This document shows, in pieces, positions 1-22,229 of a stretch of 32,000 nucleotides of DNA. Within the stretch, counting starts at the first letter, position 1. Each line of letters begins with the position of its first letter. A program made the position numbers and the translations under genes. Under the pieces are notes generated by a model. That model ran no database searches and had not been told where the DNA came from. It saw nothing but the letters and a program-made list of their open reading frames with translations. Source of the DNA: Candidatus Saccharimonadota bacterium (GTDB taxonomy: Bacteria > Patescibacteriota > Microgenomatia > UBA1406 > GWC2-37-13); the NCBI GenBank assembly GCA_016700135.1, contig CP065004.1, positions 960,001-992,000 on the forward strand. The letters are read 5' to 3'.

Positions 1-375
1 CAAACATTTGAAAGGTTCCGGAAAAATATTGAAAATCATAAGAAGGCATTAATTGAGTTGTTAACGACAACCTTGAAAGGGAAATCAGTATATGGGTACG
101 GAGCATCAACAAAAGGAAATGTCATTCTTCAGTATGTCGGATTGACAGGAAAGGACATTCCCTTCATCATGGAAATCAATCCTGATAAATTCGGACGGGT
201 CACACCGGGCACCCATATTCCGATCATATCCGATGAAGAAGTAAGAAGAAAACCGCCTGAGTATTTCCTGGTCCTCCCCTGGCATTTCCGGGACACCATT
301 TTACGGAAAGAAACGTTTTACCGGAAACACGGAACACAATTTATTTTTCCGCTTCCGGAAATTGACATCGTATGA
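1..375 (+). CDS. C-terminal part of a sugar C-methyltransferase-type protein (5' end lies outside the window)
   Basis: Frame 1 is open from base 1: QTFERFRKNIENHKKALIELL precedes the tracked TTG at 58. GKSVYGYGASTKGNVILQYVGL...INPDKFGRVTPGTHIPIISDEE...PEYFLVLPWHFRDTI resembles, from memory, the C-terminal domain of NDP-hexose C-methyltransferases (TylCIII-like, Methyltransf_14). The stop overlaps the next ATG (ATGA at 372-375). Confidence 0.65.
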   Translation, partial: QTFERFRKNIENHKKALIELLTTTLKGKSVYGYGASTKGNVILQYVGLTGKDIPFIMEINPDKFGRVTPGTHIPIISDEEVRRKPPEYFLVLPWHFRDTILRKETFYRKHGTQFIFPLPEIDIV

Positions 376-1040
376 ATATTCCCACACTGCGCGCTGCTTT
401 ACGTGAACTTATCGTTCCCCGGTTGTATCCTCTTTTTGTCAGAAACGGCTCCGATACGTTTGAGTTTCAGGGAAAAACATATCCGTATCTCAGACATCCG
501 CACAATCGGACCTGGGTCAACGAGAGGATCATTGAAGTACCGTTGGGGCTTGATATGCTTGAGCAGTATAAGGGAAAACGGATTCTTGAAGTCGGTAATG
601 TGCTGTCAAATTACACGAAAAGAAATCATGAAGTTCTCGATAAATATGAAGTTGCACCCGGTGTCATGAACGAAGACATTGTTACATTTAATCCCGGTAA
701 AAAATATGATCTGATTCTGTGTATCTCAACTCTGGAGCATGTCGGCTGGGATGAGACACCGCGCGAACCCGATAAAGTTATTGATGCCGTCAGAAATATG
801 AAAAAACTGCTGGCACCGAAGGGATTATTACTCATTACAACTCCTTTCGGATACAACCCGTACCTTGATGTGCTGCTTCTTGAAGAAAAGCTTCCGGTTG
901 ATAAAACCTATTTTCTCGAAAGGAACAATTTTTGGAATGATTGGCATGAAATAAAAATGTCTGAACTATCAAAAACACATTATTCCTGGTCCATCATGCA
1001 TGCAAACACGGTTGGGGTAAGTTATTGCACATCTTCATGA
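372..1040 (+). CDS. putative class I SAM-dependent methyltransferase with a degenerate motif I
   Basis: The 222-aa ORF has KRILEVGNVLSNY in the motif I position (glycine-poor) and YDLILCISTLEHVGWDE as a typical post-motif segment. It is translationally coupled at both ends, with ATGA overlaps at 372-375 and 1037-1040. Confidence 0.5.
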   Translation: MNIPTLRAALRELIVPRLYPLFVRNGSDTFEFQGKTYPYLRHPHNRTWVNERIIEVPLGLDMLEQYKGKRILEVGNVLSNYTKRNHEVLDKYEVAPGVMNEDIVTFNPGKKYDLILCISTLEHVGWDETPREPDKVIDAVRNMKKLLAPKGLLLITTPFGYNPYLDVLLLEEKLPVDKTYFLERNNFWNDWHEIKMSELSKTHYSWSIMHANTVGVSYCTSS

Positions 1041-1963
1041 AACAGATTTCGATCTGTATTCCTACCTATAAACGTCGGGCATTTTTAGAACAGGCACTGT
1101 CCCCCATGCTTGATGAGGTTACAAAATACAAACTCGAATCATCTTTTGAAATCGTCATTTTCAATGACAACGGTCATGATGAAACGGATACCTTTATCCG
1201 TACGTTGCTTCACAAGTACCCTTTTATCACCTATGTTATGCAGAAAAAGCGAAGAGGACTTCGGAAAGCGATCGAATACCTTCCCGAAGTAGCATGCGGG
1301 AAATATATCTGGTTTTTTTCGGATGATGATGTCCCTGTCAAAGGAAGTCTGAAGTACGTGCTGGAGTTAATTCAACAAAAGAAACCGGGCATCATTTTCG
1401 GGAATGTCGATGATTTTAACGGAGAGAAAATCACCAGCCCGAATATGCTGCGGATGGATAAGGATATGGAACTTTCAACCAGAAAAGATTTTTTCCGGTT
1501 CCTCAGTACCAAATTCGGGAGGATTACGTACTTTACGTCATATATCTCAAACTTTATTATCAGGCGGGAACTCTATGAAAAATATTCTGATATTAACGCA
1601 AAATACGATTCCGAATTTAATATGACTCCCCTAGTTATCCCTTTTTTGTATTCGAAAATGGAATGTCCGATTATCATCACTAAAAAACCTATCGTGCTTC
1701 GCCGGACCGGTAATGAAAGCTGGGCTGATCCCGATCCTATCGCTCAAACCCTCAGGTCATATAAAATAAGCGGTTTTCATTTCGGGAATATCCAGAGGCT
1801 TAACTTTTGGGATATTCCGTTTGTACTGCATTTGTATTTCATCGCGCATACGGTGGAAAGGACACTGATTTCGATGGTCATACAAATCCCTTTCGGTCTG
1901 CAGCTAATCAGATTGTATTGGTCTCTTGAGAAGAAGATCTATTCCGTGGTTTTCTCAAAATGA
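1037..1963 (+). CDS. glycosyltransferase family 2 (GT-A fold)
   Basis: N-terminal ISICIPTYKRRAFLEQAL, then FEIVIFNDNGHDETD and a FFSDDDV DxD-type motif. I prefer the ATG at 1037 (ATGA overlap with the upstream stop) over the tracked 1025. Confidence 0.75.
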   Translation: MKQISICIPTYKRRAFLEQALSPMLDEVTKYKLESSFEIVIFNDNGHDETDTFIRTLLHKYPFITYVMQKKRRGLRKAIEYLPEVACGKYIWFFSDDDVPVKGSLKYVLELIQQKKPGIIFGNVDDFNGEKITSPNMLRMDKDMELSTRKDFFRFLSTKFGRITYFTSYISNFIIRRELYEKYSDINAKYDSEFNMTPLVIPFLYSKMECPIIITKKPIVLRRTGNESWADPDPIAQTLRSYKISGFHFGNIQRLNFWDIPFVLHLYFIAHTVERTLISMVIQIPFGLQLIRLYWSLEKKIYSVVFSK

Positions 1964-1983: not shown

Positions 1984-2859
1984 TTATTTTAATTCTTCTG
2001 GTCTGAAAGCGAAATATACTGCACGTATCGTTACAGAAGCATGTCCCGGGTCTACCATAAGAAGAATTGCATATGAAATCAGTGCAATCGTAATTCTTAA
2101 GATACGTTCTATTCCGGAGAAATTTTTCAGCACGGTTCTCAAACGGTTTTTCCTGATATCAAATAAGTGGTCGGATTTTAAGACGTGCTTCTTATATGTC
2201 GATGAACCTTTGTGATAAACGAGACTGCTGTAGCAAACCATACATGTTCCTCCGTTTCGCTTTACTCTCAGACTGAGATCGACATCCTCATAATATCCCC
2301 GATACCATTCGTCAAAACCGCCCAGTTTCAGAAAAAATGATCTTTTGATCATGCAGGCAGTTCCGACGGTGTAGTCTACAGTTTTGCTTGTCACTCTCAT
2401 CATAGGTTTATTCCTTCCTATTCCGTATCCGCTTCCCCACCAACGATATTTCCCTCCGCGGTTGTCGACAACAGTCCGTTTATCGGAAAAAAGAATTTGC
2501 GGTTGGATAAATACTTTATTATTTCCCTCACAACACTGAATCAACTCTGAAATCCAATCAGGATCAACCTCCGTGTCATTGTTCAAAAAGATAATATATT
2601 CTCCTTTTGCATGTTTTGCACCGAGGTTGAAACCGCCGGTATAGAACAGGTTTTTTTCTGAACGGATATATGAGATTTGTTTATTTGTGCAGTACTCTTT
2701 CAGTTTGTCCGATGAGTCATTGGTTGAAGCGTTATCAACTACCAGAATGTCGAAATGGGGGTATCGGGTTTTCACGACTGACTGAATACATTTTTTTGTC
2801 AATGCAAATTCGTTGTAATGAAGAATGATGACCGTGATCCGCGGGAATTTTTCAGACAT
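1984..2859 (-). CDS. glycosyltransferase family 2
   Basis: ITVIILHYNEFALTKKCIQSV...ILVVDNASTNDSS...IIFLNNDTEV is a classic GT2 signature. The ATG at 2859 is preceded by GGAGGTG (minus strand AAGGATGGAGGTGGTTTATCC-ATG) and overlaps the upstream stop by 8 nt. The tracked start at 2973 is probably an over-extension. Confidence 0.8.
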   Translation of the reverse strand: MSEKFPRITVIILHYNEFALTKKCIQSVVKTRYPHFDILVVDNASTNDSSDKLKEYCTNKQISYIRSEKNLFYTGGFNLGAKHAKGEYIIFLNNDTEVDPDWISELIQCCEGNNKVFIQPQILFSDKRTVVDNRGGKYRWWGSGYGIGRNKPMMRVTSKTVDYTVGTACMIKRSFFLKLGGFDEWYRGYYEDVDLSLRVKRNGGTCMVCYSSLVYHKGSSTYKKHVLKSDHLFDIRKNRLRTVLKNFSGIERILRITIALISYAILLMVDPGHASVTIRAVYFAFRPEELK

Positions 2860-3835
2860 GGATAAACCACCTCCATCCTTTCTGTAAAAGTTTTCGAAAG
2901 GTGATCTTCCCGAAGACCTGAACGTCTTTTTTTCTGATGATCCGCTGCTTCTTTTCCAGAGTCCGATATCCATTCAACAGATTCCATCCCAGTCCTTTAT
3001 AGATTACAAAAGCCGATTGAAACTCACCTTGAAGAAACAGTTTCATTGAAAGTAAAATCCATCCAAGTATATGCAGCGGGACCATGTAAAGGGCAGTGTT
3101 TATCGGTGCATCTTTCAAAATATAATTCAGATTATTCTTTGATCCTTCAAAATACACCCGCTGTTTGGTTTGAGCTGTCATACTGCTTCTTTGACGGTGA
3201 TATACGACTGATCCCGGCAAGTAATTTATTTCATATCCGCCAAGCCATATGCGCCATGACAAATCCGTATCTTCCCCGTAAATCAAATAATCTTCATCAA
3301 AACCGCCGGCTTCTTCGAATACCTTTTTCCGGACAGCCATTCCTGCGGATTTTGCACCGAAAACCGGTGTAATCTTTCTGAATTTTTCAGGAGCTTCATT
3401 GACACCGAGCTCATACGGAAACCCGAAAATCGTCAAAAAATGGCCGATGCTGTCAAGTTTTTGATCTGATAATCTCAATTCACATTGGACGGCACCTGCC
3501 TGCAGATCCTTCATAAAAAACTTCCGTATTGTATAAAGGGTTTGATCCGTTATCTCCGTATCAACGTCAAGAAAAAACAGAATATCTCCTGATGCTTGTT
3601 GTGCCCCCTCGTTCCGTGACCGGGACGGTCCGATGTTGGTCTCATGAGAAATAAGACTCAGCTGCTTTTGCTTGTACTTTCTGATAAGGGCAGATGTTCT
3701 ATCCGTTGAGCCGTCATCAATCACCATGAGTTGATCCCCCGACAGAAGATTCGGAAGGACGGAATCAATACATTTTTGAATATACTTCTCAGCATTGAAA
3801 CACGGAATGATAATTGAGATATCAGCCTTTGACAT
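2852..3835 (-). CDS. glycosyltransferase family 2
   Basis: ISIIIPCFNAEKYIQKCIDSV...LMVIDDGSTDRTS...FFLDVDTE, with hydrophobic helices at the C-terminus. The tracked start at 3853 is a TTG, and the ATG at 3835 (MSKADISIII) is more natural. It overlaps the stop of the upstream gene at 3822. Confidence 0.8.
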   Translation of the reverse strand: MSKADISIIIPCFNAEKYIQKCIDSVLPNLLSGDQLMVIDDGSTDRTSALIRKYKQKQLSLISHETNIGPSRSRNEGAQQASGDILFFLDVDTEITDQTLYTIRKFFMKDLQAGAVQCELRLSDQKLDSIGHFLTIFGFPYELGVNEAPEKFRKITPVFGAKSAGMAVRKKVFEEAGGFDEDYLIYGEDTDLSWRIWLGGYEINYLPGSVVYHRQRSSMTAQTKQRVYFEGSKNNLNYILKDAPINTALYMVPLHILGWILLSMKLFLQGEFQSAFVIYKGLGWNLLNGYRTLEKKQRIIRKKDVQVFGKITFRKLLQKGWRWFIHV

Positions 3836-4835
3836 ATCGGATTGCTTTGTCAAGATAATGAGTAATAGGTTCCGAATTTCCGACTTTTTTCAGTAAATCT
3901 TCATCGGAGATAATTCGTAACCTTTGAATTTTTTTCCTTTCACGCAGGGTATCCGTGATATTCATAAAGTTCCATAATATACCCTGCACGAGTTCTCCTC
4001 CCGCTCTCAGATCAAACCGAAGCAATATTATGACTGCAAGCACAATCCAGATCCCGACCTGCACAGGTAAAGCATACCAGAGTCTTTTACCCTCAACATT
4101 TTTAATAACTGACCGGATGGTATTCCTGCATCCGCGGTACTTCGGCTGAAGCATGCTGTAATATTTTTTTGTTTTTTCGTAAGTCGGATCATTGTGAAAA
4201 ACGGTGATTGCAGGTTGGTACAGGACAGTGTATCCCGCCAGCCAATTACGGAAACAAAGGTCAGTATCCTCCACCAGCCATTCCATCTTTTCATCAAATC
4301 CTCCGATCCGTTCGAACTGCTTTTTCGGAATGATCATTGCGGCAGATTTTCCCGAAAAAACGAACGCTTCTTTTTCAAACTGGCCGGTATTGATTGCAGC
4401 TTTCGCACGGTCAATCAGAAGATAAAATGGTGTGAGCAATTCTCCCGCACTGTCAAATCTGTTTGAGTGAAAACGGAGAAGTTTGCAGAGCATAATTGCG
4501 TTCGAATTAGTTTTATACAGTTGCGGAACGGTTTCTCCCCAGCCGGGCTGTATTTCGGTATCAGAATCGAGAAAAAACAAATACGTTCCGCTGCTTTTTC
4601 TCACGGCATAGTTGCGTGCTGCGGCAGCTCCTTTTTTTGACTGAAAAGTGTAAAGCGTTATCATTTTCCGTCGTTCATATGTTTTGAGAATTTTCCCGGT
4701 ATCGTCATCTGAGGCATCATCAACCGCAATAATCTCATAGTTTTCCGTTTTTTCCGCAAGCAATGAATCAATGCAGGTTTTGATAAATTGTTCTGCATTT
4801 CTTACTGCGATAATAATTGAAATTTCAGGTTTCAT
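3822..4835 (-). CDS. glycosyltransferase family 2
   Basis: EISIIIAVRNAEQFIKTCIDSL...IIAVDDASDDDTG...LFFLDSDTE, with a C-terminal hydrophobic segment. The ATG at 4835 forms an ATGA overlap with the stop of the upstream gene (4832-4835). The tracked start at 4925 is an over-extension. Confidence 0.8.
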   Translation of the reverse strand: MKPEISIIIAVRNAEQFIKTCIDSLLAEKTENYEIIAVDDASDDDTGKILKTYERRKMITLYTFQSKKGAAAARNYAVRKSSGTYLFFLDSDTEIQPGWGETVPQLYKTNSNAIMLCKLLRFHSNRFDSAGELLTPFYLLIDRAKAAINTGQFEKEAFVFSGKSAAMIIPKKQFERIGGFDEKMEWLVEDTDLCFRNWLAGYTVLYQPAITVFHNDPTYEKTKKYYSMLQPKYRGCRNTIRSVIKNVEGKRLWYALPVQVGIWIVLAVIILLRFDLRAGGELVQGILWNFMNITDTLRERKKIQRLRIISDEDLLKKVGNSEPITHYLDKAIRYVKG

Positions 4836-5800
4836 ATCGGTCGGAATAATCCTACAATACTTCCGGGGATGGCGCCGAGAAGCTCCCGTTTCCCGGTTCT
4901 CATGAAAAGAAATATATAGTAGCAATTCTGTAGTAAAACATTGAAGAGAAACCGTAGTCGGGCTGATGAATCAGTTCTTGAAAGATGTTTTCGATAGAAG
5001 ATAATAAAATTTTGAATACGGTGATATGAGTCGACGCGGACATGAGCTGATTTCTGTACATTGTGAAAGACTTGAGCCTGCGGATTGAATACGTTCGTAT
5101 ACCCGGCTTCAGTGATTTTGCAGGCAACATCTGCTTCATGATATTCGGAAAGTCCCTGAGCAAAGGTGGGATCAAATCCGCCAAACTCTTCAAGAAGTGT
5201 CCGTCGTACGGCAAAGTTACAGGCTTCAAGATTATCAACTGATTTCGGTTCCCCGATTTTTTGAACCGATTCCTCAAAATTGGATCCGAGGGTAAAAGCA
5301 CCGCTACGGGTAAACAGGCTTACTTCCTTCATCTTCCCTTCATAAATAACATCCGTATACAAATACGAAAGAAGCTTCTTCAAAGGATTTGTTGATTTCT
5401 CAAAATCATTCAAAAACGCAAAAAGATCCCGGCCATCCATTAGTTTCTTTTTAATAATCGTGGGACCGGTCACTCCTCCTACCTTTTTATCTTCAAATGA
5501 TGTGAGAATAGCTTTGAGCCAGTTTTTATCAGCCACAATATCATCATCAATTCTGATAAAAATATCATCTTTTGCGTGATTTAAAGCCAGGTTTGCCGCA
5601 TGCAATAATCCCCGTTTCGGCTGAACCAAAAAAAGATAATCTTTGATATATTTTTTCAGAAGTTTTTTAATATGATCGTTGTCCGTGAGTGACACGGCAA
5701 TAACGGAAAAACGCTGATCGGACTGTTCTGACAAACTTTTAAGACAGTTTACCAGTTGTTCAGAATCTCTTGAAATCGGTATGAAGATATTCGCTTTCAT
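4832..5800 (-). CDS. GT2-like glycosyltransferase
   Basis: NIFIPISRDSEQLVNCLKSLSEQSD...IFIRIDDDIVADKNWL has GT-A-like N-terminal topology with a DDD motif. The start forms an ATGA overlap with the upstream gene at 5797-5800. Confidence 0.7.
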   Translation of the reverse strand: MKANIFIPISRDSEQLVNCLKSLSEQSDQRFSVIAVSLTDNDHIKKLLKKYIKDYLFLVQPKRGLLHAANLALNHAKDDIFIRIDDDIVADKNWLKAILTSFEDKKVGGVTGPTIIKKKLMDGRDLFAFLNDFEKSTNPLKKLLSYLYTDVIYEGKMKEVSLFTRSGAFTLGSNFEESVQKIGEPKSVDNLEACNFAVRRTLLEEFGGFDPTFAQGLSEYHEADVACKITEAGYTNVFNPQAQVFHNVQKSAHVRVDSYHRIQNFIIFYRKHLSRTDSSARLRFLFNVLLQNCYYIFLFMRTGKRELLGAIPGSIVGLFRPI

Positions 5801-6936
5801 AAGGCAAGAATGCGAGAATAATAGTTAAAATATTGTACGGCGGTATTCTCAGGATTCCGGCTTTTTGCAAGGTGAATAGTATTTTTGATGAGCATGTCTC
5901 TCAGTTTTCTATCATTGGTAATCATTTCAAATGCATCTGCCCAATGGTTATTATCAATAAGCATGCCGTTTTTCAGATGACTAATGTCTTCTTTCAGGTG
6001 ATCTACATCGGATGCCAAAATACAGGAGTGATATCCTCTTGCCTGATACAAAGGTCCGCTGGAGCCGACATTTATTAATGCAGGATTTATTACTGCATAT
6101 GCTTTTTCGTACAAGAAATCAAGTTCCGATTCGTCAATTATTTCACCGCGAAATTCAATGGCAGGACAGGGAGTAATCAGTTTTTTTATCGATTCAACAT
6201 ATGTTTCCTGACCCCGAATTGTTCCACCTGCAATTATGAACCGGTAGCCGGTATGTTTTTTCTGAAAATCCGAAAAAGCGGAAATCACGGTTTCCAGTCC
6301 TTTTCGCGGTGTGATGTATCCGAAATACAGAAAATACTTCTCAGGATTCCTGTTATGGACTTTCTTTTCGGGAATACATGCCGGAATGACATGGATCTTT
6401 TTTTTAGATACCCGGTATTGTTTTTCAAGTAAATGTACGGCTCTTTCGGTATGACAAACAATACCGTCAGTGGTTAGTCCGATAAACCACAGAATGAAGG
6501 TAAAAAACTTTCTGAGGAAAAACGGTTTTGCGAGAATCGACTTTAGATGAAAGGCAGAAACAAAATCATCGTTCATATTGTCCAAATCCAGGACGGCATG
6601 GATGGTCACAACAACTGGATAACCGAGCATCTTTAAAACGGCAAGAAACAGCGGGAACATGACCGCAGATACTGCTCCTCCGTACATCATAAACTCATGC
6701 TGGAGATGAATAATGTCTGGTTTTGTCTGAAGTATTTTTTTGAGAATCGGAACAAAAAAGAACGGACCTTTTTCCCAAACAGGAAATACGGTTCCGCAGC
6801 CCTGCAGCGTTTTATTTGCCGGATTTTTTTCAGCCGCAACAAAGACCTCTAAGTCGGAATTCCTGGTCAGGGAGTTTGTAAGTATTTGGGTATAATGACC
6901 GAACGGCTGAAGCGTCGAAACAATAAAAACTTTCAT
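5797..6936 (-). CDS. glycosyltransferase, GT-B fold (GT4/GT1 group-1 type)
   Basis: The C-terminal half reads FLYFGYITPRKGLETVISAF...FIIAGG...ELDFLYEKAYAVINPA...GPLYQARGYHSCILASD, which is typical of group-1 glycosyltransferases. It is the first gene of the minus-strand five-gene chain. Confidence 0.75.
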   Translation of the reverse strand: MKVFIVSTLQPFGHYTQILTNSLTRNSDLEVFVAAEKNPANKTLQGCGTVFPVWEKGPFFFVPILKKILQTKPDIIHLQHEFMMYGGAVSAVMFPLFLAVLKMLGYPVVVTIHAVLDLDNMNDDFVSAFHLKSILAKPFFLRKFFTFILWFIGLTTDGIVCHTERAVHLLEKQYRVSKKKIHVIPACIPEKKVHNRNPEKYFLYFGYITPRKGLETVISAFSDFQKKHTGYRFIIAGGTIRGQETYVESIKKLITPCPAIEFRGEIIDESELDFLYEKAYAVINPALINVGSSGPLYQARGYHSCILASDVDHLKEDISHLKNGMLIDNNHWADAFEMITNDRKLRDMLIKNTIHLAKSRNPENTAVQYFNYYSRILAL

Positions 6937-6988
6937 GTGTGGGTTCAGTTATTATACTCCATTTCATATGCGTAGTATAATGATTTCC

Positions 6989-8662
6989 ATGGGCAAAAAA
7001 AAATGGCGCAACAGAGAAAAAAAGATAAAAGAGGATGAAAAACCGAAATCAGAGGAGATGCAGAAAATTGAAAAATACATGTACCCTGCCATTATTACTC
7101 TTCTTGTCCTGATAACATATTTTAACGCATTCAATAACGCATTTGTATCGGACGACATCTATGGTATCGTTAACAATCCGGCGATCGGTCAGTGGAAAAA
7201 TGTGACTTCCCAAATACTTAAATTCTTTCAGCCGCTTCTTTACTTTTTGATTTATCAGATTGATCCCACAAACCCCACATTATTCAGAGTTTTCAACATA
7301 CTTGTTCATATGGGGGTTGCCAACCTTGTTTTCATTTTGGTCAAGCGGTTTGTCAATCCGATGGCTGCGTTTATTGCCGGAGCTTTATTTGCCGTACATC
7401 CGATCCTGGTCGAGTCAGTCTCTTGGATTTCAGGAGGAATTTATTCATGGTATACCTTTTTCTTTTTACTTTCATTCTATTACTATCTCGCAAGGGACCG
7501 TATCACATGGCGATATTACCTTTCCGTTTTTTTCTTCTGGATGTCACTTGTCGTCGGCGTTCCGGCAGTTGTCCTTTCGGGAGTTTTTATCTTGTATGAG
7601 TTGTCATTCGGGAATATTGTCAAAAAATGGATGTGGTCTCTCCCCTATTTTGTCCTGTCCGGCATATATGCCTTCCTCACGCTTAAAGGATACGGGACCC
7701 GGGTCCAATCGCTATCCGCAACCAATAATTCTGCTCCTGAAGTACTCAATCCGATGATACAGGTACCAGTTGCAATTAGTGAATATATCAGACTGTTTTT
7801 GTGGCCGGATTCTCTGACACTGTATCAGTCAGAATTGTCAGCGCCGCCTCTTGAATATACGGTGAGACTGATTGTTTTTCTGACGGTATTCGGTGTGACC
7901 GTTTATTCATTTTTTAAAAATAAACATGTATTTTTCGGGCTTTCGATTTTTTTCCTTGGATTGTTGCCGACTCTTACACCGATTTCCATCGCGTGGGTTG
8001 TTGCGGAGCGGTACGCATATTTCAGTATGATCGGATTGGTATATATTGTCGGATACGGGCTTACACGGATTCATAAACGGTATGACGGCATTGTTTACGG
8101 ACTGCTGGTTCTTGCCATCGTAGCGTTGTCGATCCGCACAATAGTCAGAAACAACGACTGGGACAATGAAGACAATCTTTGGATCGCCACTGTCAAAACG
8201 TCACCTTCGGATCCTAAATCTCACAACAATATGGGTGATGTGTATGCCCGTCACGATGATTTAGAAAATGCCGCCCGGGCATTTAATAATGCCATAAAAC
8301 TCAATCCCGGATATCCGGATGCACACCACAATCTCGGGAATATTTATATGAAGCAGGGAAAAACTGAAGAAGCCGAACAGTTATTTAAAAGAGCCATCGA
8401 ACTCAATCCTGGCCTCTGGCAGCCGCATCAAAATCTCGGAGCAATTTATTACAATCAGGGTAATTATCAAAAAGCGCTAGAAGAAAATTTGACAGTGCTC
8501 AAGATGAATCCCAATCAAGTCAGCGCTTATCTGAATGTCGGAGTGATTTATTTCCAGCTGGGTGAAAAGGAACAGGCACGTAGGTATTTTGAGATAGTTT
8601 TATCAGCCGATCCCAACAACCAAATGGCCCAGCAAGGTATCATTGAATTGAACAAACTCTGA
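6989..8662 (+). CDS. multi-TM GT-C-like glycosyltransferase fused to C-terminal TPR repeats (PMT/TMTC-like)
   Basis: A Lys-rich N-terminus is followed by about 10 hydrophobic helices. The first loop carries NAFVSDDIYGIVNN (DD at 7151-7156). The C-terminus has about four TPR units (NNMGDVYARHDDLENAARAFNNAIKLNPGYPDAHHNLGNIYMKQGK...). I prefer the ATG at 6989 because TATAAT (6976-6981) lies 7 nt upstream. The tracked start at 6935 would overlap the divergent gene's start. Confidence 0.7.
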   Translation: MGKKKWRNREKKIKEDEKPKSEEMQKIEKYMYPAIITLLVLITYFNAFNNAFVSDDIYGIVNNPAIGQWKNVTSQILKFFQPLLYFLIYQIDPTNPTLFRVFNILVHMGVANLVFILVKRFVNPMAAFIAGALFAVHPILVESVSWISGGIYSWYTFFFLLSFYYYLARDRITWRYYLSVFFFWMSLVVGVPAVVLSGVFILYELSFGNIVKKWMWSLPYFVLSGIYAFLTLKGYGTRVQSLSATNNSAPEVLNPMIQVPVAISEYIRLFLWPDSLTLYQSELSAPPLEYTVRLIVFLTVFGVTVYSFFKNKHVFFGLSIFFLGLLPTLTPISIAWVVAERYAYFSMIGLVYIVGYGLTRIHKRYDGIVYGLLVLAIVALSIRTIVRNNDWDNEDNLWIATVKTSPSDPKSHNNMGDVYARHDDLENAARAFNNAIKLNPGYPDAHHNLGNIYMKQGKTEEAEQLFKRAIELNPGLWQPHQNLGAIYYNQGNYQKALEENLTVLKMNPNQVSAYLNVGVIYFQLGEKEQARRYFEIVLSADPNNQMAQQGIIELNKL

Positions 8663-8703
8663 TTGTTGGTATACTGATTATACAATTACATTAGCTCCGC
8701 CTC

Positions 8704-10368
8704 ATGTCACAGATGAAACAAATGTCGGTTGCAATCGGATATCCTCCTCTTTCCTCAAAAAAAGGCGTTCCCCTACTGTCTCAGAACAGGCAGTTTCAGT
8801 ATTTTAATGCTCCCACGTATATTTATCCTATGGTCCCGGCCTATGCTGCTTCCAATCTGAAAAAGCACGGATATCCCGTTTTCTGGATGGACGGCATTGC
8901 CGAAAGAAAGACTGAGACCCAATGGTTTGCGGAACTGAAAGAACATAATCCGGATATTTTCCTTCTCGAAACGAAGTCTCCCGTTGTGAAAAAACACTGG
9001 AAGATCATTGCCAAAATGAAAAAGCTGCTTCCTGACATGAAAATTGTGTTGGTCGGAGACCATCCGAGTTATGTACCTTACGAGCAGTTCGAAAACAGCA
9101 AGGTAGATTATGTCATAAAAGGTGGTGATTATGATTTTGTTTTGGTGAATCTTTTGAATCATCTTGCAAAAGGTGAAAAACTGGAAGGCGGTTTGTACTG
9201 GCGCTCTACTGATAAAAGTATTCAGGCAGACAAGAAAGAAATCCGCAAGCAGAAACTCAAAAACGGCGAAGTAATTTATAATTCAGGACCGCCGTCACTG
9301 AAGCATGACTTAAACAAACTTCCTTTCGTGGATCGGGACCTTACCAAGTGGGAGCTTTATGCCTATGCAAACGGAAATTATAAATATACTCCCGCAACAT
9401 ATATGTACAGCGGAAGGGACTGCTGGTGGAATAAATGCACGTTCTGTGTTTGGGATCATACGATAAATCCGATCGGTTCGTATCGCAGCTTGACTCCGGA
9501 ACGGCTTTTTGCCGAAGTGAAACATGTAGTTGATAATTACGGTGTAAAGGAAATTTTTGATGATGCCGGTACGATGTTTGTCGGAAATAAATTGAAAAAA
9601 TTCTGTGAGCTGATGATCGAGAGCGGCTACAACAAAAAAGTCCGATACGGATGTAATATGAGATTTAATGCCATTCCGAATCAGGAGTTGTATGACCTGA
9701 TGGGAAAAGCAGGTTTCCGGTTCATCCTGTACGGTATGGAATCCGGAAACCAAAAGACGCTGGATCGTCTGGAGAAAGGAACGAAAGAACGCGATGCGAT
9801 CATGGGGCCGGCAATGGCCAGAAAAGCCGGTCTTGATCCGCATGTGACGATCATGCTCGGTTATCCGTGGGAAAGTTACGAAGATGCGAAACGTACCATT
9901 GAGACTGCTAAATTTGCTTTAAAAAAAGGATATTATGAAACCATTCAGGCAACGATCATCATGCCGTATCCCGGCACTCCTCTGTATCGTGAATGTAAAG
10001 AAAATGACTGGCTTCTGACTGATGACTACGAACGGTTTGATATGCGTGAACCGGTGATGAAAATTCCGTTTCCGAAAGAGAAATTACTGGAGCTTGAACA
10101 GGATCTCTACTCTACTTTTATGACACCTCAGTATATCGGACGCAAACTTCTCCGGCTTCGATCGCTGCATGACGTGAAGTATTTGTTTTATATGGCATAC
10201 AAGTTCCTGGGGCATATGCTTGACTTCGATCCGAATCAGACAGAAGTAAAGTTCACATCGCTGAAGTTTTGGCAGAATACCGTCAAACGATTATTCAGTC
10301 ACTTTACTACATCAAAAACGGCTGTTGACGAGGAGAAAGAACGGATTGCGGCAAGTGTGGGAAGATGA
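8704..10368 (+). CDS. B12-binding-domain radical SAM protein (class B-like)
   Basis: The N-terminal Rossmann-like region (IFLLETKSPVVKKHWKIIAKMKKLLPDMKIVLVGDHPS) is typical of cobalamin-binding radical SAM proteins. The cluster motif is CWWNKCTFC at 9421-9447. Downstream elements FILYGMESGNQ and TIMLGYPWE fit a radical SAM core. Alternative ATGs exist at 8713 and 8722. Confidence 0.8.
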   Translation: MSQMKQMSVAIGYPPLSSKKGVPLLSQNRQFQYFNAPTYIYPMVPAYAASNLKKHGYPVFWMDGIAERKTETQWFAELKEHNPDIFLLETKSPVVKKHWKIIAKMKKLLPDMKIVLVGDHPSYVPYEQFENSKVDYVIKGGDYDFVLVNLLNHLAKGEKLEGGLYWRSTDKSIQADKKEIRKQKLKNGEVIYNSGPPSLKHDLNKLPFVDRDLTKWELYAYANGNYKYTPATYMYSGRDCWWNKCTFCVWDHTINPIGSYRSLTPERLFAEVKHVVDNYGVKEIFDDAGTMFVGNKLKKFCELMIESGYNKKVRYGCNMRFNAIPNQELYDLMGKAGFRFILYGMESGNQKTLDRLEKGTKERDAIMGPAMARKAGLDPHVTIMLGYPWESYEDAKRTIETAKFALKKGYYETIQATIIMPYPGTPLYRECKENDWLLTDDYERFDMREPVMKIPFPKEKLLELEQDLYSTFMTPQYIGRKLLRLRSLHDVKYLFYMAYKFLGHMLDFDPNQTEVKFTSLKFWQNTVKRLFSHFTTSKTAVDEEKERIAASVGR

Positions 10369-10430
10369 TTTTTCAGCTCCGAACCTCCCAAGTCGCACAA
10401 AAAATTATATTTTCGCAAGTGCTATGCATC

Positions 10431-11465
10431 TCAGTCTCCATTATTTACTTTAGCGTCCTGGCGGTTTGTTACATTTGTCATTTTCTCTCTCACATACCCC
10501 ACAATAAACCAGAAGCCGTAGGTCACATGCGTGATCGGGATGACGAGTATTGCTCCGAGTGCGATAAGAAGATTTTCCGTCCGCAGATGCGTCTCAAAAA
10601 ATACATATGCTAACAGTCCGCAGTAAAGAAAAAACGGAATTGCAGCTGTGAAAAGATACGGACTTTTCAGTATAAAAAATACAAACAAGACCGCAAGATA
10701 CAAAGTAAAAAAAGCCGGTATGACATACATGAGATGAACCGAGTTTTGATCTCCTTGAGCCGCAAATTTTCCCCTCGTTTTTCCGTAGTTTTTATGCTGT
10801 GCCAGATGACCGGAAAGTGAATCCCTCCTGTGATGAAACACCTGTACGTCAGGGTGATACAAGATAAACTTCTGTTCTTTGACTATGAATTTGTTCAATA
10901 ATTTACTGTCCTCTCCCGGCCAGTGATGATTGTCAAAACCGCCGATACTTGCAAATATTTCTTTCCGAAGCATCAGATTCATTGCCGGATAATCGTCGAC
11001 GAACCGTTTCGGTTGCGGCTGAAAACGGTACACGTATGAGCCGCTTCCTACCCAGGTCCGAAGAACAGCATCAAATATCCTCTCCCAGAATGAGACTTTT
11101 TCTGGAAGTGTCCCGGGTCCTCCCAGTGCGGCAATTTCTGGCTCCTTTTGCAGAATTTTATGTGCCTGAAACAACCATTTCTTTGAAGGATATACGTCGT
11201 CATCGATAAATGCCAACACTTCTCCCTTAGCGTGCTTCGCTGCATAATCACGTTTATCTCCGGGCCTGTTTTTGGCACCGTTAGACAAAATCCGAAGCCA
11301 GGGATACTTCTGTGTTAGTTTCTGATCATCTTGTCCCGTAATATCCGAAACAATGATTACTTCAAATGATGTAAAGGTCTGATTTCCGATTGCAGGGAGT
11401 GTTTCATCGATAAGAATGCCGGATATTTTCCTTGTCGGAATTATTATGGTAAAAAAAAGAGACAT
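10431..11465 (-). CDS. membrane-anchored glycosyltransferase family 2 (GT-A domain plus C-terminal TM helices)
   Basis: FTIIIPTRKISG...FEVIIVSD...VLAFIDDDVYP forms the GT2 core. The last roughly 90 aa are hydrophobic helices (VIPAFFTLYLAVLFVFFIL..., LLIALGAILVIPITHVTYGFWFIVGY). Confidence 0.75.
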   Translation of the reverse strand: MSLFFTIIIPTRKISGILIDETLPAIGNQTFTSFEVIIVSDITGQDDQKLTQKYPWLRILSNGAKNRPGDKRDYAAKHAKGEVLAFIDDDVYPSKKWLFQAHKILQKEPEIAALGGPGTLPEKVSFWERIFDAVLRTWVGSGSYVYRFQPQPKRFVDDYPAMNLMLRKEIFASIGGFDNHHWPGEDSKLLNKFIVKEQKFILYHPDVQVFHHRRDSLSGHLAQHKNYGKTRGKFAAQGDQNSVHLMYVIPAFFTLYLAVLFVFFILKSPYLFTAAIPFFLYCGLLAYVFFETHLRTENLLIALGAILVIPITHVTYGFWFIVGYVREKMTNVTNRQDAKVNNGD

Positions 11466-11471
11466 TCTTCT

Positions 11472-11479
11472 AGTATAAT
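11472..11479. promoter_or_regulatory. overlapping divergent -10 boxes in the 40-nt gap between the GT2 gene and the PfkB kinase gene
   Basis: The plus strand has TAGTATAAT, with TATAAT at 11474-11479 and 26 nt to the ATG at 11506. The minus strand has TATACT at 11472-11477, with 6 nt to the ATG at 11465. Confidence 0.45.
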
Positions 11480-11505
11480 GTTATTTTAATAAGCTTAAAT
11501 TCAGT

Positions 11506-12447
11506 ATGCCCGATCTTACAAAATCTTCATGCATAATTGTAACAGGATCTATAGCATATGATGATATCATGAATTTCCCCGGTTATTTCAAAGATCACTT
11601 CCATCCGGAAAAACTTCACCAAATAAATATTTCGTTCGTTGTGGACCGTCTCGACAAACATTTAGGCGGAACCGCGACAAATATTGCTTTCAATATTACA
11701 CGTATAACCGGAAAAAAAACGGTCATACTTGGCGCCATGGGGAAAGATCACAAAAACCTGACTGATTTTTATGATGAATGCGGGATTGATTATTCAGGCT
11801 GCATTATTGATAAGAAGCTGTATACCTCTACGGGAAAAGTCATGACAGACCGTGCCGATAATCAGATTTGGAGTTATTATTACGGAGCGGGAGCACGGGG
11901 AAAAGACGTCCGCTTTGAAAAATTTGCTGAAAATTCCTTTGTCATACTTTCTGCCAATCATGCCGATGCGTTTTTACATGCACAAACATATTGTATAGAA
12001 CATTCAGTCCCCTATCTCTATGATCCCGGCATGTCACTGACCTGGATTGACGATGAGAGACTTGAGCAGGGAGTCAGACATGCGGCATTTGTTGTCGGGA
12101 ATGATTATGAAATTGCTCAGATGGAGCGCAGACTTAAAAAGCAGCTTATTGACGTAGTCCCGAAAGGCTGCGGTGTTATTACCACACTCGGTGCTGAAGG
12201 AGTTATGTATCAAAGTTCATCAGAAAAACATGAGGTTAAGGCTTTTACGATAAAAGGATTTGTTGATCCGACCGGTGCCGGTGATGCCTGGCGCGGAGGT
12301 TTTGTGGCGGCTCTTGCTGAAGGAAAAACGTTGAGGGAATCACTTTCATTCGGAAACGCTTTGGCAAGCTTTGCAGTGGAATCAGTCGGTACGGCTAATC
12401 ACCGTCCGGCACATGAACAGATCGTCCAAAGGGCAGCCAGTTTATAA
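11506..12447 (+). CDS. PfkB-family sugar/nucleoside kinase (possibly adenosine kinase)
   Basis: It has LGGTATNIAFN near the N-terminus and the PfkB signature DPTGAGDAWRGGFVAAL near the C-terminus. It sits directly upstream of ahcY. Confidence 0.8.
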   Translation: MPDLTKSSCIIVTGSIAYDDIMNFPGYFKDHFHPEKLHQINISFVVDRLDKHLGGTATNIAFNITRITGKKTVILGAMGKDHKNLTDFYDECGIDYSGCIIDKKLYTSTGKVMTDRADNQIWSYYYGAGARGKDVRFEKFAENSFVILSANHADAFLHAQTYCIEHSVPYLYDPGMSLTWIDDERLEQGVRHAAFVVGNDYEIAQMERRLKKQLIDVVPKGCGVITTLGAEGVMYQSSSEKHEVKAFTIKGFVDPTGAGDAWRGGFVAALAEGKTLRESLSFGNALASFAVESVGTANHRPAHEQIVQRAASL

Positions 12448-12461
12448 ATTTCATTAACAAT

Positions 12462-19136: not shown

Positions 19137-21167
19137 TTACAAAGCCAATCCGAGGAGGATGAGTACAAACGGTATAAGTACTGCAATCGCTGGATTCATA
19201 CCCGGAGGCTGATCCTCGACTTCCAGTTTGGTCACCGGCGTAGCTGTGGGAGGAGGAGGTACGGGTGTAAATGTCGGTGTCGGCGGAATGGGTGTCGGGG
19301 TAGGAGGCACCGGAGTCGGTGTCGGTGTAAATGACGGTGTAGGTGTCGGTGAATGGGTCGGTGACGGGCTCGGAGTTTCAGAAGGAGAAGGTGACGGTGA
19401 AGGTGTTGGTGTATCTTCCGCCGGCTGTGTCGGTGTCGGAGTAGACTGCGGACAGGTTTGTGTTGCAGGATCGTATCCCGTACTGTTTTCAGAGATGGCA
19501 AAAGCATAACCGCCCGGCCACATTTCACCCGGAGGTACTGTGTTGGATGATTGCACGTTATGACATTCTATCGATTCTACCCCGTTGTTTTCAGTTCTGA
19601 CATCCATCTGGGCAGTCTTACAGGGGGTTTGTTCATACTCAAATGTCATGGATTGTCCGGGCTGCAGGACAATATTCCGCTTTGGCTGGCTGAAGTTTCC
19701 GTCCCATTCTCCCACAAAACAGCTTTCTGCACCGTCAGCGCAGGCGTTATCTCCTCCCTCACAGCGATAACTGCCGCGATACTGTTCTTTCCTTCCTGGT
19801 ACATACGTACATCTGAACAGATCAACTTCGATTTTATCGATAGGTTGTTCCGTACCGTTTTTAATCGTAATTCTATTTGAGTTGTAGGGATCAGGTCCCG
19901 AATCACACTCCAATACGCCGGAACGGTTATCATCATCATCGTCATCGCCTCCTCCGTCAGGAATCGTCATAGTCGGAGGTACGAGTACGATTGATTCATA
20001 GGGCTGGAATGCAATTTGTCTTTGGGCGTCAATAAGGGTAGTTGCACCGCGAATATTCGAATAGGTTTTATAACCTGCATAATTATGTTCAGGCAGCCGG
20101 ACAGTCGGAGTTTCGTCTGACACATTGAGAAGCATACCCATATATTCACCGTTCTTTTCAGTAAGGGTACCCATGATCGGCTTAAAGTTGTACTCAGATA
20201 CAAACGGATTATCCCACGGGTCCCCGTTTCCGCGGAATGCATCCGGCCACACAACTTGAGGACTGACAGCAAGCTGCTTTGCCACCAGTGACATTGTTGT
20301 TTTTTCAGCAACATTCATCGTATCAAAAACACCGCCGTTTACGAACTTTATCGGTGCCTTTTCAGGCTCAGTCTGTACATGGGTCACCATTGCAGAAACG
20401 AGTAATGAAAACCGCTTGATCTGATTCTGTACGATACTGCTCGGCATGGTGATCTCGGATAGTGAAAGCATTGAGTTCGGAGGGTATACTATTTTAGTAC
20501 TCGAATCCCCGCTTATCGATTTTGAAGCATCATACATGGTGTCGAACATTGTTTTGACATAACCCCAAATATTTTCATCACGATTCTCGAATTTGATGCT
20601 GATGGCATTGATAATCGGCGGCGGTGCCCTTTCAAGTAAATCTTTTACCTGTTCTCTTGGCCAGAAGGTAGCGACACCTGCATGAAATAGGATTTTATCG
20701 GGTTTTAATGCCTTTACTTCGTTTGTCTTCGCCACATCAAATGCATTGTAATCCATAAGCTCGACTACTATTTGATCCTGATATTTAGCGTAATAAGCCT
20801 GAACAACCGGAGTCATATTTTCGTAATTTGAGAATGAAAGATACCATTTGAAACCCGCAGTCTGTAAGCTGTCAAATTGGGTGCTTTGTATCATGGCAGC
20901 GGTCGGGTTCTTTATTTTGATGTAGACATTGCCGCCGGGGAAGTAATTTTTAAGCTCCTGAACGGTCGTGTCATTGGTAATATCATTTACCATAACCCCG
21001 AATTTTTGATCTATCGGTCCGCGCTTATCATAAAATTTGAGAGAGATAGTATCGCCTGCCGCTCTTGAGCTTGTCAGCACACGGTACTGCTGTATTGCAA
21101 GTGAAAAGAAGATAACTCCAAGGATAAAAAATGCAATTGAAAACAGTAAATACGCTCGGCGGTGCAT
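19137..21167 (-). CDS. secreted/cell-surface protein A: leader, ~360-aa globular domain, poly-Asp hinge, Cys-containing domain, Pro/Thr/Ser linker, PGMNP motif, C-terminal hydrophobic tail
   Basis: The N-terminus [36 protein letters not shown] has n- and h-regions and an S-R-A site. Also present are DDDDDD at aa 408-413, six or more Cys in aa 420-572, a PT-rich linker at aa ~575-645, and the tail PPGMNPAIAVLIPFVLILLGLAL-stop. TGCTAGACT lies 6 nt upstream of the ATG. Confidence 0.8.
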   Translation of the reverse strand: MHRRAYLLFSIAFFILGVIFFSLAIQQYRVLTSSRAAGDTISLKFYDKRGPIDQKFGVMVNDITNDTTVQELKNYFPGGNVYIKIKNPTAAMIQSTQFDSLQTAGFKWYLSFSNYENMTPVVQAYYAKYQDQIVVELMDYNAFDVAKTNEVKALKPDKILFHAGVATFWPREQVKDLLERAPPPIINAISIKFENRDENIWGYVKTMFDTMYDASKSISGDSSTKIVYPPNSMLSLSEITMPSSIVQNQIKRFSLLVSAMVTHVQTEPEKAPIKFVNGGVFDTMNVAEKTTMSLVAKQLAVSPQVVWPDAFRGNGDPWDNPFVSEYNFKPIMGTLTEKNGEYMGMLLNVSDETPTVRLPEHNYAGYKTYSNIRGATTLIDAQRQIAFQPYESIVLVPPTMTIPDGGGDDDDDDNRSGVLECDSGPDPYNSNRITIKNGTEQPIDKIEVDLFRCTYVPGRKEQYRGSYRCEGGDNACADGAESCFVGEWDGNFSQPKRNIVLQPGQSMTFEYEQTPCKTAQMDVRTENNGVESIECHNVQSSNTVPPGEMWPGGYAFAISENSTGYDPATQTCPQSTPTPTQPAEDTPTPSPSPSPSETPSPSPTHSPTPTPSFTPTPTPVPPTPTPIPPTPTFTPVPPPPTATPVTKLEVEDQPPGMNPAIAVLIPFVLILLGLAL
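19233..19445 (-). repeat. low-complexity Pro/Thr/Ser linker-coding region of protein A
   Basis: It encodes [69 protein letters not shown]. The plus strand is a run of ggtg/ggag/gtcgg-type units and yields Gly/Val-rich shadow ORFs. Confidence 0.85.
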
Positions 21168-21209: not shown

Positions 21210-22229
21210 TTACATTGCAAGACCAAGCAGTACGAGAGCAAACGGAATCAGGATAGCGAGAATCGGATTGAATCCCGGAGCCTGTTCGTTCACGGTCAGA
21301 TTCTGAACAGGTGTGGCAGTCGGTGCTTCAGCAATTACGACCGGCGTTGGTGCATCCTGTACTATGACTGTCGGGACAGGTGTGTTGCTCGGGACTGGAG
21401 TATCAGTGGGTACCGGTGTATCTGTCGGAACAGGAGTTTCAGACGGAGTAGGTGTCGGCGTTTCTGATGGTGTTGGAGTCGGAGTGTTTGACGGCGTCGG
21501 TGTAGGAGTCTCAGACGGTGTCGGCGTCGGTGAATGTGAAGGAGTGGGAGTAGGTGTCGGGGTCGGTTCATTTGGAGGTGTAGTCGGTGTTGGCTCATTA
21601 GGAGGAGTGGTAGGTGTCGGTTCGTTCGGCGGAGTCGTCGGGGTCGGTTCATTTGGAGGTGTAGTCGGCGTAGGCTGGTCACAGTTGTCGCCGAAACCTT
21701 CGGTACGTCCGGCATGGCTTACTCCCGGTGCATTAATCTGAACATCTACCTGCACCCTACCGCAGCTATTCCAGTTGGGGATGGTAAAATTCCATTCAAA
21801 TGAATTGTTAGTCGCATTCGGGTTTGTATCACTGAGAGAAAGAGACCCTACTGTTGAAGTGTTATGCACATTATCTTTCAGATCATTATCGCTTTCGGTA
21901 CATGATCCGCCGCTGCTTCCTGAACACCAGAACCAGGAAGTGTCATTAATATGATATACTCCTGAAGGACAATTTCCCGGTTCGCAAAGGAGCTGACAGC
22001 CGAATGTAGCTTTTGCGTTTCCGCTCCCGTCAACGTTAATATCTATGACGCTACAGCTGCCGCAGGGTTTATTGGAACCGTCCGCATTACATTGATTGAA
22101 TGTTCCTCCTTCGGCCCGTGAGCTGGTTAATAATTGATATTGAGTAATTGCGAGTGAAAAGAATATCACACCGATCCCGAACAATATCGAGGAGATAATG
22201 ATGTAAATAGTATTCTTTTGCAGTTTCAT
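21210..22229 (-). CDS. secreted/cell-surface protein B (shorter paralog-type): leader, Cys-rich domain, long repetitive Pro/Thr linker, PGFNP motif, C-terminal hydrophobic tail
   Basis: The N-terminus ...[25 protein letters not shown] aligns with protein A. It has 12 Cys in aa 47-183, PTPTTPPNE x4 plus TPTPTPSE and TPVPTD repeats, and the tail [23 protein letters not shown]-stop. Confidence 0.8.
21567..21674 (-). repeat. 4 x 27-bp in-frame tandem repeat encoding PTPTTPPNE
   Basis: Plus-strand units are ggttcatttggaggtgtagtcggtgtt / ggctcattaggaggagtggtaggtgtc / ggttcgttcggcggagtcgtcggggtc / ggttcatttggaggtgtagtcggcgta (phase offset 2 nt from these coordinates). The peptide is identical in all four units, while the DNA of units 2 and 3 differs at synonymous sites. 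Confidence 0.9.

Follow-up and report, generated by a model that had tools for sequence, protein, structure and literature searches.

A TMTC-like GT-C membrane protein with C-terminal tetratricopeptide repeats, and its recurrent gene neighbourhood in Patescibacteria

What does a bacterial membrane protein do that resembles a glycosyltransferase in its first two thirds and ends in protein-binding repeats? The question is raised by a gene on the + strand (6989..8662, 557 amino acids) of the window analysed here, a stretch of 32,000 nucleotides (nt) from Candidatus Saccharimonadota bacterium (contig CP065004.1, positions 960,001 to 992,000). The initial annotation read it as a GT-C membrane domain fused to tetratricopeptide repeats (TPRs), and suggested that it could act with a nearby GT2 gene as a protein glycosyltransferase and its donor synthase. 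The TMTC1-4 proteins, which share this architecture, are protein O-mannosyltransferases of the animal endoplasmic reticulum (CAZy family GT105). Our analysis indicates that the gene probably encodes an integral-membrane GT-C enzyme of a TMTC-like lineage, which would transfer sugar from a polyprenyl phosphate to an extracytoplasmic acceptor, most likely Ser or Thr of a protein. The architecture is already known and annotated by similarity; the gene adds a bacterial member to it without founding a new type of system. The novelty lies in its recurrent association in Patescibacteria with a B12-binding radical-SAM gene, a membrane GT2 gene and a Wzx-like gene, on which we found no paper in the literature searched.

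In the list of open reading frames (ORFs), the longest ORF runs from 6935 to 8662 on the + strand, and the ATG at 6989 gives the N-terminus MGKKKW that is also present in three orthologues with 85–89% identity (P0001–P0003). As the closest orthologues begin likewise, the start was taken at 6989; over the orthologues as a whole identity is 85–98%. An exact match to the protein sequence is absent from the assembly index. The full-length AlphaFold2 model, built with 76 homologues, has a predicted local distance difference test score (pLDDT) of 90.9 and a predicted template modelling score of 0.88. The membrane domain (residues 29–385, 7073..8143, + strand) is supported by hydrophobicity, charge distribution, Foldseek and hhalign, and contains 11 transmembrane (TM) segments according to hydrophobicity and the AlphaFold helices, so that the multi-span domain first proposed stands, while its count of about 10 helices does not. 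It is followed by four TPR units (residues 409–540) and a capping helix (545–556), together at 8213..8659 on the + strand and with Foldseek support. The expectation of about four units was borne out both by Pfam (TPR_1 at E 1e-33 in four stretches, TPR_2 at E 2e-33) and by four helix pairs in the model, at residues 409–438, 443–472, 477–506 and 511–540.

A Foldseek search of PDB with the full-length model returned TPR proteins only (OGT, consensus TPR, APC/C) and was silent on the membrane part; residues 27–402 were therefore modelled alone (pLDDT 86.5). The best 22 PDB matches of this membrane-only model are all GT-C proteins (probability 0.98–1.0, TMq 0.40–0.55), comprising STT3 (OST-A/B and yeast OST), ArnT (5f15, 5ezm), PglB, AglB, the C-mannosyltransferase DPY19 and PimE, with ArnT 5f15 as second-best match (E 3.8e-3) and AftA, ALG9, ALG12 and Pmt1 at lower ranks (Pmt1 43rd, E 1.2). 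The modelled membrane domain thus shows a GT-C fold, as had been suggested. An O-antigen ligase or polymerase was considered as an alternative and rejected, with neither the window protein nor 22 homologues matching Wzy_C/WaaL in Pfam, and with WaaL, Wzy and SEDS proteins all absent from the first 50 fold matches.

Within the GT-C class, Pfam PMT_2 (PF13231) matched 15 of the 22 homologues (40–53% identity, best E 1.3e-7) but not the window protein itself, and the DUF2723 domain of the TMEM260 family matched neither the window protein nor any of the 22. The protein resembles ArnT and other PMT_2-type enzymes (GT83) in its fold class and in an acidic pair in loop 1, but ArnT, with 13 TM helices, bears a periplasmic domain in place of TPRs and acts on lipid A. 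With Pmt1/Pmt2 and the bacterial PMT proteins (GT39), which act on protein Ser/Thr in Thr/Pro-rich regions, it shares the GT-C fold, 11 TM helices and the acidic pair, but it lacks their MIR domain. Membership of PMT/GT39 was rejected, as the window protein has no PMT or MIR match, only one of the 22 homologues matched PMT (E 0.3), and Pmt1 was undetected by the family profile.

The closest kinship detected was with the animal TMTC proteins, whose hallmarks are 11 TM helices, a cytoplasmic N-terminus, lumenal TPRs, a DUF1736 loop between TM7 and TM8, and seven motifs, M1 to M7 (Eisenhaber et al., PMC7801869). The same authors mention full-length prokaryotic TMTC homologues, which are uncharacterised (PMC7801869), and the literature searched yielded no paper on what a prokaryotic TMTC homologue does. 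For comparison we used the alignment of the TMTC N-terminal domain from Additional file 1 of that study, with ArnT (5EZM) and Pmt1 (6P25) from the same file, and a test set of 12 sequences (TMTC1-4 of human, fly and zebrafish) searched using hmmsearch with Z=1e6. The family profile matched all 12 TMTC sequences with E-values from 3e-28 to 1e-16, the match to human TMTC3 covering profile positions 7–366 of 380, whereas ArnT and Pmt1 went undetected by the same profile. Even the window sequence alone matched human TMTC3 (E 6.7e-9), and hhalign aligned the family with the TMTC alignment over 362 columns at 23% identity (probability 99.88%, E 3.9e-32). On these profile comparisons, the membrane domain is homologous to the N-terminal domain of animal TMTC proteins, and the TMTC-like architecture first proposed was supported, although the search for DUF1736 itself was negative. 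Both families have a GT-C domain with 11 TM helices, followed by TPRs on the non-cytoplasmic side (here as predicted), prolines in TM9, though differently spaced, and three common boxes: YxNSLxxxFVxDDxxxIxxN, LFAVHPIxxE(A/S)V and VVAER(V/Y)xY.

Invariant in the alignment of 76 sequences are, among others, D55, D56, H107, H137, P138, E142, W146, S148, Y266, P273, Y279, E282, E340, R341, Y342, Y344, R383 and R387. The putative catalytic pair D55-D56 (motif M1; 7151..7156, + strand) lies within NAFVSDDIYGIVNN in external loop 1 and aligns with the TMTC DD, so that the acidic pair reported in the first loop was recovered at the same nucleotides. In TMTC proteins this DD is in register with D55/E56 of ArnT and D77/E78 of Pmt1 (PMC7801869). 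The LFAVHPILVE box (7385..7414, + strand), at the end of TM3 and leading into external loop 2, contains the invariant H137, P138 and E142 and is nearly identical to LFAVHPIHTE of TMTC. External loop 4 carries WPDSLTLYQSE (7805..7834, + strand; P273, L276, Y279 and E282 invariant) in place of the 'DW' motif of the DUF1736 loop. Finally, E340-R341-Y342-A-Y344 (8006..8020, + strand) represents the ERxxY motif (M7) and aligns with AERVLY of TMTC; the corresponding Arg touches the donor phosphate in solved GT-C enzymes (PMC7801869). M1 and M7 are thus both kept and invariant in the 76 sequences. For M6 (PxxP in TM9) the window protein has P327 and P331, a PxxxP spacing, 9–13 residues before ERxxY.

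Whether these residues face the outside was predicted from the distribution of charge. The positions of the 11 hydrophobic helices come from a hydropathy scan combined with the model. Counts of Lys and Arg over the 76 sequences gave 7.7 Lys plus Arg per 28 residues in the short loops assigned to the cytoplasm versus 1.55 per 27 in the short external loops, and 4.0 in the 25 residues ahead of TM1. Because of this bias the N-terminus was placed inside, so that the TPR domain and all the conserved loops, the DD loop among them, would lie outside. The predicted topology is thus N-in, 11-TM and TPR-out, as in TMTC, and the DD loop is placed externally, as first proposed, both by the positive-inside rule and by its register with the TMTC motif.

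We infer from this arrangement how the protein may work. Its outer face would carry D55-D56 in loop 1, H137 and E142 in loop 2, Y279 and E282 in loop 4, and E340-R341-Y342 in loop 5. Sugar would be taken from an outer-leaflet donor that carries it on polyprenyl phosphate, with R341 holding the phosphate and D55 acting at the acceptor, which by analogy with TMTC may be held by the four TPR units and would most likely be Ser/Thr of a surface protein. The gene belongs to a surface-glycan gene cluster, in which the membrane GT2 and the B12 radical-SAM protein, present beside the GT-C gene in ~44% of relatives, would probably make the lipid-linked sugar or alter it at the cytoplasmic side of the membrane, with a Wzx-like flippase encoded beside them.

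The B12-binding radical-SAM gene (8704..10368, + strand) starts 41 bp downstream of the GT-C gene and is co-directional with it, while the GT2 gene (10431..11465, - strand) converges on it. To place this arrangement, six-frame ORFs of 81 related loci were searched, scoring a radical-SAM gene as present within 8 kb and a GT2 homologue at a score of at least 100. The radical-SAM homologue was the most conserved neighbour (36 of 81 loci, 35 with a score >200), and in ~20 loci its start or end lies no more than 130 bp from the GT-C gene; the membrane GT2 was found in 35 of the 81. The genes are co-directional in the clade of the window and convergent in most loci, but the radical-SAM gene lies upstream in L048 and the order is changed in L005. 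That the genes stay linked although reordered, in Moran-, Roizman-, Parcu- and Microgenomates lineages alike, argues for a functional tie. A Wzx-like gene, recognised by ORF clustering, accompanied 26 of the 35 loci with the pair versus 4 of the 46 others, and extra GT2 genes (15 loci), methyltransferases, C-methyltransferases, GT4 and NDP-sugar epimerase/dehydratase genes were also enriched in the loci with the pair.

Three further loci were found starting from radical-SAM homologues. One (L082) has the GT2 and radical-SAM genes with a convergent TPR protein gene, while the other two (L083, L084) carry the GT2 and radical-SAM genes together with a small ferredoxin gene in glycan clusters, and lack a GT-C/TPR gene within 7 kb. 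Each of the three loci adjoins a gene for S-adenosylhomocysteine (AdoHcy) hydrolase, accompanied by PfkB or MetK. As the pair also occurs without a GT-C/TPR gene, GT2 and radical-SAM are best seen as a tight pair, very widespread in CPR bacteria, with the GT-C gene as a frequent, facultative partner. A small ferredoxin gene stands between the GT2 and radical-SAM genes in other lineages of the Candidate Phyla Radiation (CPR). In the window, the ORF at 10365..10613 (+ strand, 82 amino acids), which overlaps the radical-SAM stop codon and is antisense to the GT2 gene, has the right size for such a ferredoxin but is not one, and is probably spurious. A scan for promoters and terminators over 6800–11600 gave counts at the level of shuffled sequence, and nothing between the GT-C and radical-SAM genes.

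The radical-SAM protein is 46–89% identical across CPR lineages, far more conserved than the GT-C protein, and its more than 6,000 homologues carry generic names only. It matches the Pfam Radical_SAM and B12-binding domains; its best NCBIfam match is HpnJ (147 bits, E 7e-43), which is below the cut-off of 577 for that model, and its best PDB matches are QCMT (9ccb, a B12-dependent glutamine C-methyltransferase), AprD4 and OxsB.

The GT2 protein combines a GT-A domain (PF00535, 49 bits, residues 6–167) with hydrophobic C-terminal helices at approximately 244–325, and has the invariant residues D88 and D90 (DxD), W182-P-G-E-D186 and H211-H-R-R214. This is the membrane-anchored architecture for which the initial annotation had assigned it to the DPM1/GtrB/ArnC type, but the family assignment was not supported. 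Each of the 33 orthologues hits MftF, EpsD and AglG among the NCBIfam models, the last a Dol-P-glucose glucuronosyltransferase, and ArnC- and PpgS-type models are hit by none. In PDB the GT2 profile found GalT1, K4CP (chondroitin polymerase) and TarS first, with DPMS (5mlz) only at 2e-4, behind 19 other GT2 entries, and with GtrB and ArnC absent; all matches were restricted to the nucleotide-binding half. The protein could act on a lipid acceptor. Of the proposed pairing with the GT-C protein, conserved neighbourhood is the part that survives, and a functional link is plausible, but the constant partner of the GT2 gene is the radical-SAM gene.

Several observations weigh against a TMTC-like protein glycosyltransferase. 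The Foldseek E-values are modest, 2e-3 at best, even though the list of matches is uniform; taken by themselves, the first 406 residues reach no Pfam model at E<=10, and phmmer and the membrane-domain profile found nothing meaningful among PDB sequences. DUF1736 matches neither the window protein (E<=10) nor the 22 homologues (E<=1), whereas the human TMTC proteins all match at E<1e-30, and loop 4 is shorter here (~52 versus ~75 residues). Four of the seven TMTC ligand-binding motifs are absent: M2 (SHKSYRP) is FFQPL in the window protein and FxRPL in the family consensus; M3 (RxD) is WISGG in both; M4 (KE(T/Q)xxT) is SEKA in most relatives, SHPQMP in one subclade and VGVPA in the clade of the window; and M5 (DW) is Y-(H/Q)-S-E, in the window YQSE with Y279 and E282 invariant. 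M4, the loop-3 K/E motif replaced in the window clade, has been proposed to bind metal and phosphate in TMTC. Further differences from the TMTC proteins are that there are only four TPR units and that in a bacterial host the donor would be of undecaprenyl type and not of dolichyl type. The protein is, on these alignments, not a canonical TMTC, and we treat it as a presumptive sister lineage. Finally, 45 of the 81 GT-C loci lack the GT2/radical-SAM pair, and the pair also occurs without a GT-C-TPR gene, so that the coupling is facultative.

The alternative that fares best keeps the fold and the chemistry and changes the acceptor, which would be a cell-wall polymer, lipid or glycan, as for ArnT, EmbC/Aft and YfhO, with the TPRs docking partner proteins. 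Lipids or polymers are the acceptors of most bacterial GT-C enzymes of known function, the structural matches include ArnT and AftA, and the gene is part of a cluster of polysaccharide type that also encodes a Wzx-like flippase, a GT4, several GT2 proteins and methyltransferases; moreover, proteins rich in Ser, Thr and Pro are not linked to the GT-C gene, being found within 8 kb of it in only 6 of the 81 loci. However, by sequence the protein is specifically related to the TMTC protein O-mannosyltransferases and not to ArnT, and where glycosyltransferases carry fused TPR modules, as in OGT, TMTC and TMEM260, these modules bind protein substrates. We therefore consider a non-protein acceptor rather unlikely.

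The initial annotation went further than a protein acceptor, in that the GT2 would be a synthase of the DPM1/GtrB/ArnC type whose product is used directly by the GT-C enzyme on the linkers of two proteins encoded in the window, named A (19137..21167, - strand) and B (21210..22229, - strand). These adjacent genes encode paralogous surface-type proteins that share an N-terminal anchor (FFSLAI.QY..LTSSRA.G), a long linker rich in Thr, Pro and Ser, and a C-terminal hydrophobic tail (PG(M/F)NP...LIPF(V/A)L(I/V)LLGLA(L/M)). The same tail is found at another CPR locus (L011:15422-16723, - strand) and resembles a PGF-CTERM-type sorting signal, although neither the tail nor proteins A and B as a whole match any NCBIfam or Pfam model. 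Thr/Pro linkers are classic sites of O-glycosylation, and long T/P-rich linkers between two anchors would suit such a transferase, just as the GT-A domain with C-terminal TM helices and the conserved synteny with the GT-C gene would suit a synthase. Against this specific scheme, the GT2 orthologues have MftF, EpsD and AglG as their NCBIfam matches and in no case an ArnC or PpgS model, the weak match to DPMS is confined to the N-terminal half with GtrB and ArnC missing, and the GT2 gene is coupled first to the radical-SAM gene. A and B, for their part, are located 10 kb from the GT-C gene beyond housekeeping genes, with homologues near the GT-C gene in only one or two of the 81 loci, and are thus unlinked to its family. 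The idea that the A and B linkers are substrates is reasonable but finds no support in this analysis, and the scheme as a whole is unlikely.

A third possibility is that the protein moves not a single sugar but a whole oligosaccharide from lipid pyrophosphate, as an O-oligosaccharyltransferase or glycan polymerase on the GT-C fold, the oligosaccharide being built by GT4 and GT2 enzymes and flipped by the Wzx-like protein. The immediate surroundings of the gene invite this reading: directly divergent from it is a GT4 gene (5797..6936, - strand), adjoined by four GT2 genes (1984..5800, - strand), a further GT2 gene (1025..1963, + strand) and a methyltransferase gene (372..1040, + strand), all recognised by Pfam/NCBIfam. 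At L001, which has the same gene order, a Wzx-like Polysacc_synt gene and a sugar C-methyltransferase gene lie just upstream of the point that matches the window start. In structure the protein comes closest to oligosaccharyltransferases (STT3, PglB and AglB), the Wzx-like gene is enriched in related loci, and the cluster showed no candidate for Wzy or WaaL. Sequence homology nevertheless points to the TMTC lineage, which transfers monosaccharides, the GT4 gene co-occurs in only ~10–15 of the 81 loci, and no initiating phosphoglycosyltransferase was identified in the window using Pfam/NCBIfam, which makes transfer of an oligosaccharide quite improbable. A non-catalytic membrane scaffold that keeps the GT-C fold and acts through its TPR domain only would account for the missing loop-3 K/E and DW motifs in the window clade, but can hardly be right given that DD, H137, E142, Y279, E282 and E340-R341-Y342 are invariant in 76 homologues of only 39–51% identity, which is an active-site pattern.

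For the preferred reading, of a TMTC-like protein glycosyltransferase, the neighbourhood may be compared with known pathways. In the ArnC-ArnD-ArnT, GtrA/B/V and DPPR synthase/epimerase-Emb systems a lipid-linked sugar is made, sometimes modified, and then moved by a GT-C enzyme, and the association of a membrane GT2, a cytoplasmic modifier, a flippase-like gene and a GT-C gene is similar here. The differences are that the GT2 is not of the ArnC/GtrB/DPM1 type and that the linkage is facultative, and to our knowledge a modifying enzyme of the B12 radical-SAM class is not known from pathways of this type. A membrane GT2 paired with a B12 radical-SAM protein is found in HpnI-HpnJ, the hopanoid GT2 and ring-contraction enzyme, but the HpnJ match lies far under its cut-off, no hopanoid genes are present, and the best PDB match is QCMT. 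One could imagine an as yet undescribed route in Patescibacteria, in which the GT2 loads a lipid carrier, the radical-SAM enzyme rearranges or C-methylates the lipid-linked sugar at the cytoplasmic face, the Wzx-like protein flips the product and the GT-C/TPR protein, as the last step, passes the unusual sugar to surface proteins. We regard this complete route as doubtful, and know of no precedent in GT-C donor pathways for rearrangement or C-methylation of a lipid-linked sugar by a radical-SAM enzyme.

Beyond the GT2 gene the window continues with genes for PfkB, AdoHcy hydrolase, pyruvate kinase and LepA. The PfkB kinase and AdoHcy hydrolase genes (11506-13715, + strand), elsewhere joined by a S-adenosylmethionine (SAM) synthetase gene, recur near radical-SAM/GT2 and methyltransferase genes, which suggests a local SAM-recycling set. 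Between the pyruvate kinase and LepA genes lies a gene for a protein of 613 amino acids without Pfam or NCBIfam match (15291-17132, + strand), which is found at the same place in L001.

The family to which the GT-C protein belongs is large. A search with the membrane part gave 612 matches among the scored candidates, three with 85–89% identity and the others with ~40–50%, nearly all of which bear C-terminal TPRs, and those with names are from Roizman-, Davies-, Levy- and Parcubacteria. NCBI annotates such relatives as 'tetratricopeptide repeat protein', and JGI lists several as 'protein O-mannosyl-transferase'. Searching 1.84 billion cluster representatives using the membrane-domain profile gave 89,385 matches at E<=1e-3, 59,594 at E<=1e-10 and 6,066 at E<=1e-30; with 59,594 representative clusters at E<=1e-10, the feature is not due to chance. 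Among species-representative genomes 207 loci have a relative, including one with 98% identity (L002), and the informatively named records are all Patescibacteria except for two Omnitrophota and one metagenome-assembled genome labelled 'Clostridia'. L002, L003 and many other loci are titled 'uncultured Gammaproteobacteria/Bdellovibrionales/Pseudomonadales bacterium', and these labels look unreliable in view of the Patescibacteria found elsewhere. The subclade with SHPQMP in external loop 3 (L014, L017, L038, L041, L069 and others) lacks the radical-SAM gene and has other conserved neighbours, namely a LysM protein (21 loci) and one with an Ig-like/Glucodextran_B domain (14 loci), both secreted, which could be acceptors.

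The TMTC enzymes matter in animal development and disease, and no experimental TMTC structure turned up in the PDB sequence-profile or Foldseek searches made here. The compact bacterial version, with 557 amino acids, four TPRs and a core of DD, HP..E and ERxxY, is abundant in Patescibacteria and is a candidate model for structure and mechanism, and its linkage with the radical-SAM and GT2 genes provides a testable lead to the cell-surface chemistry of Patescibacteria.

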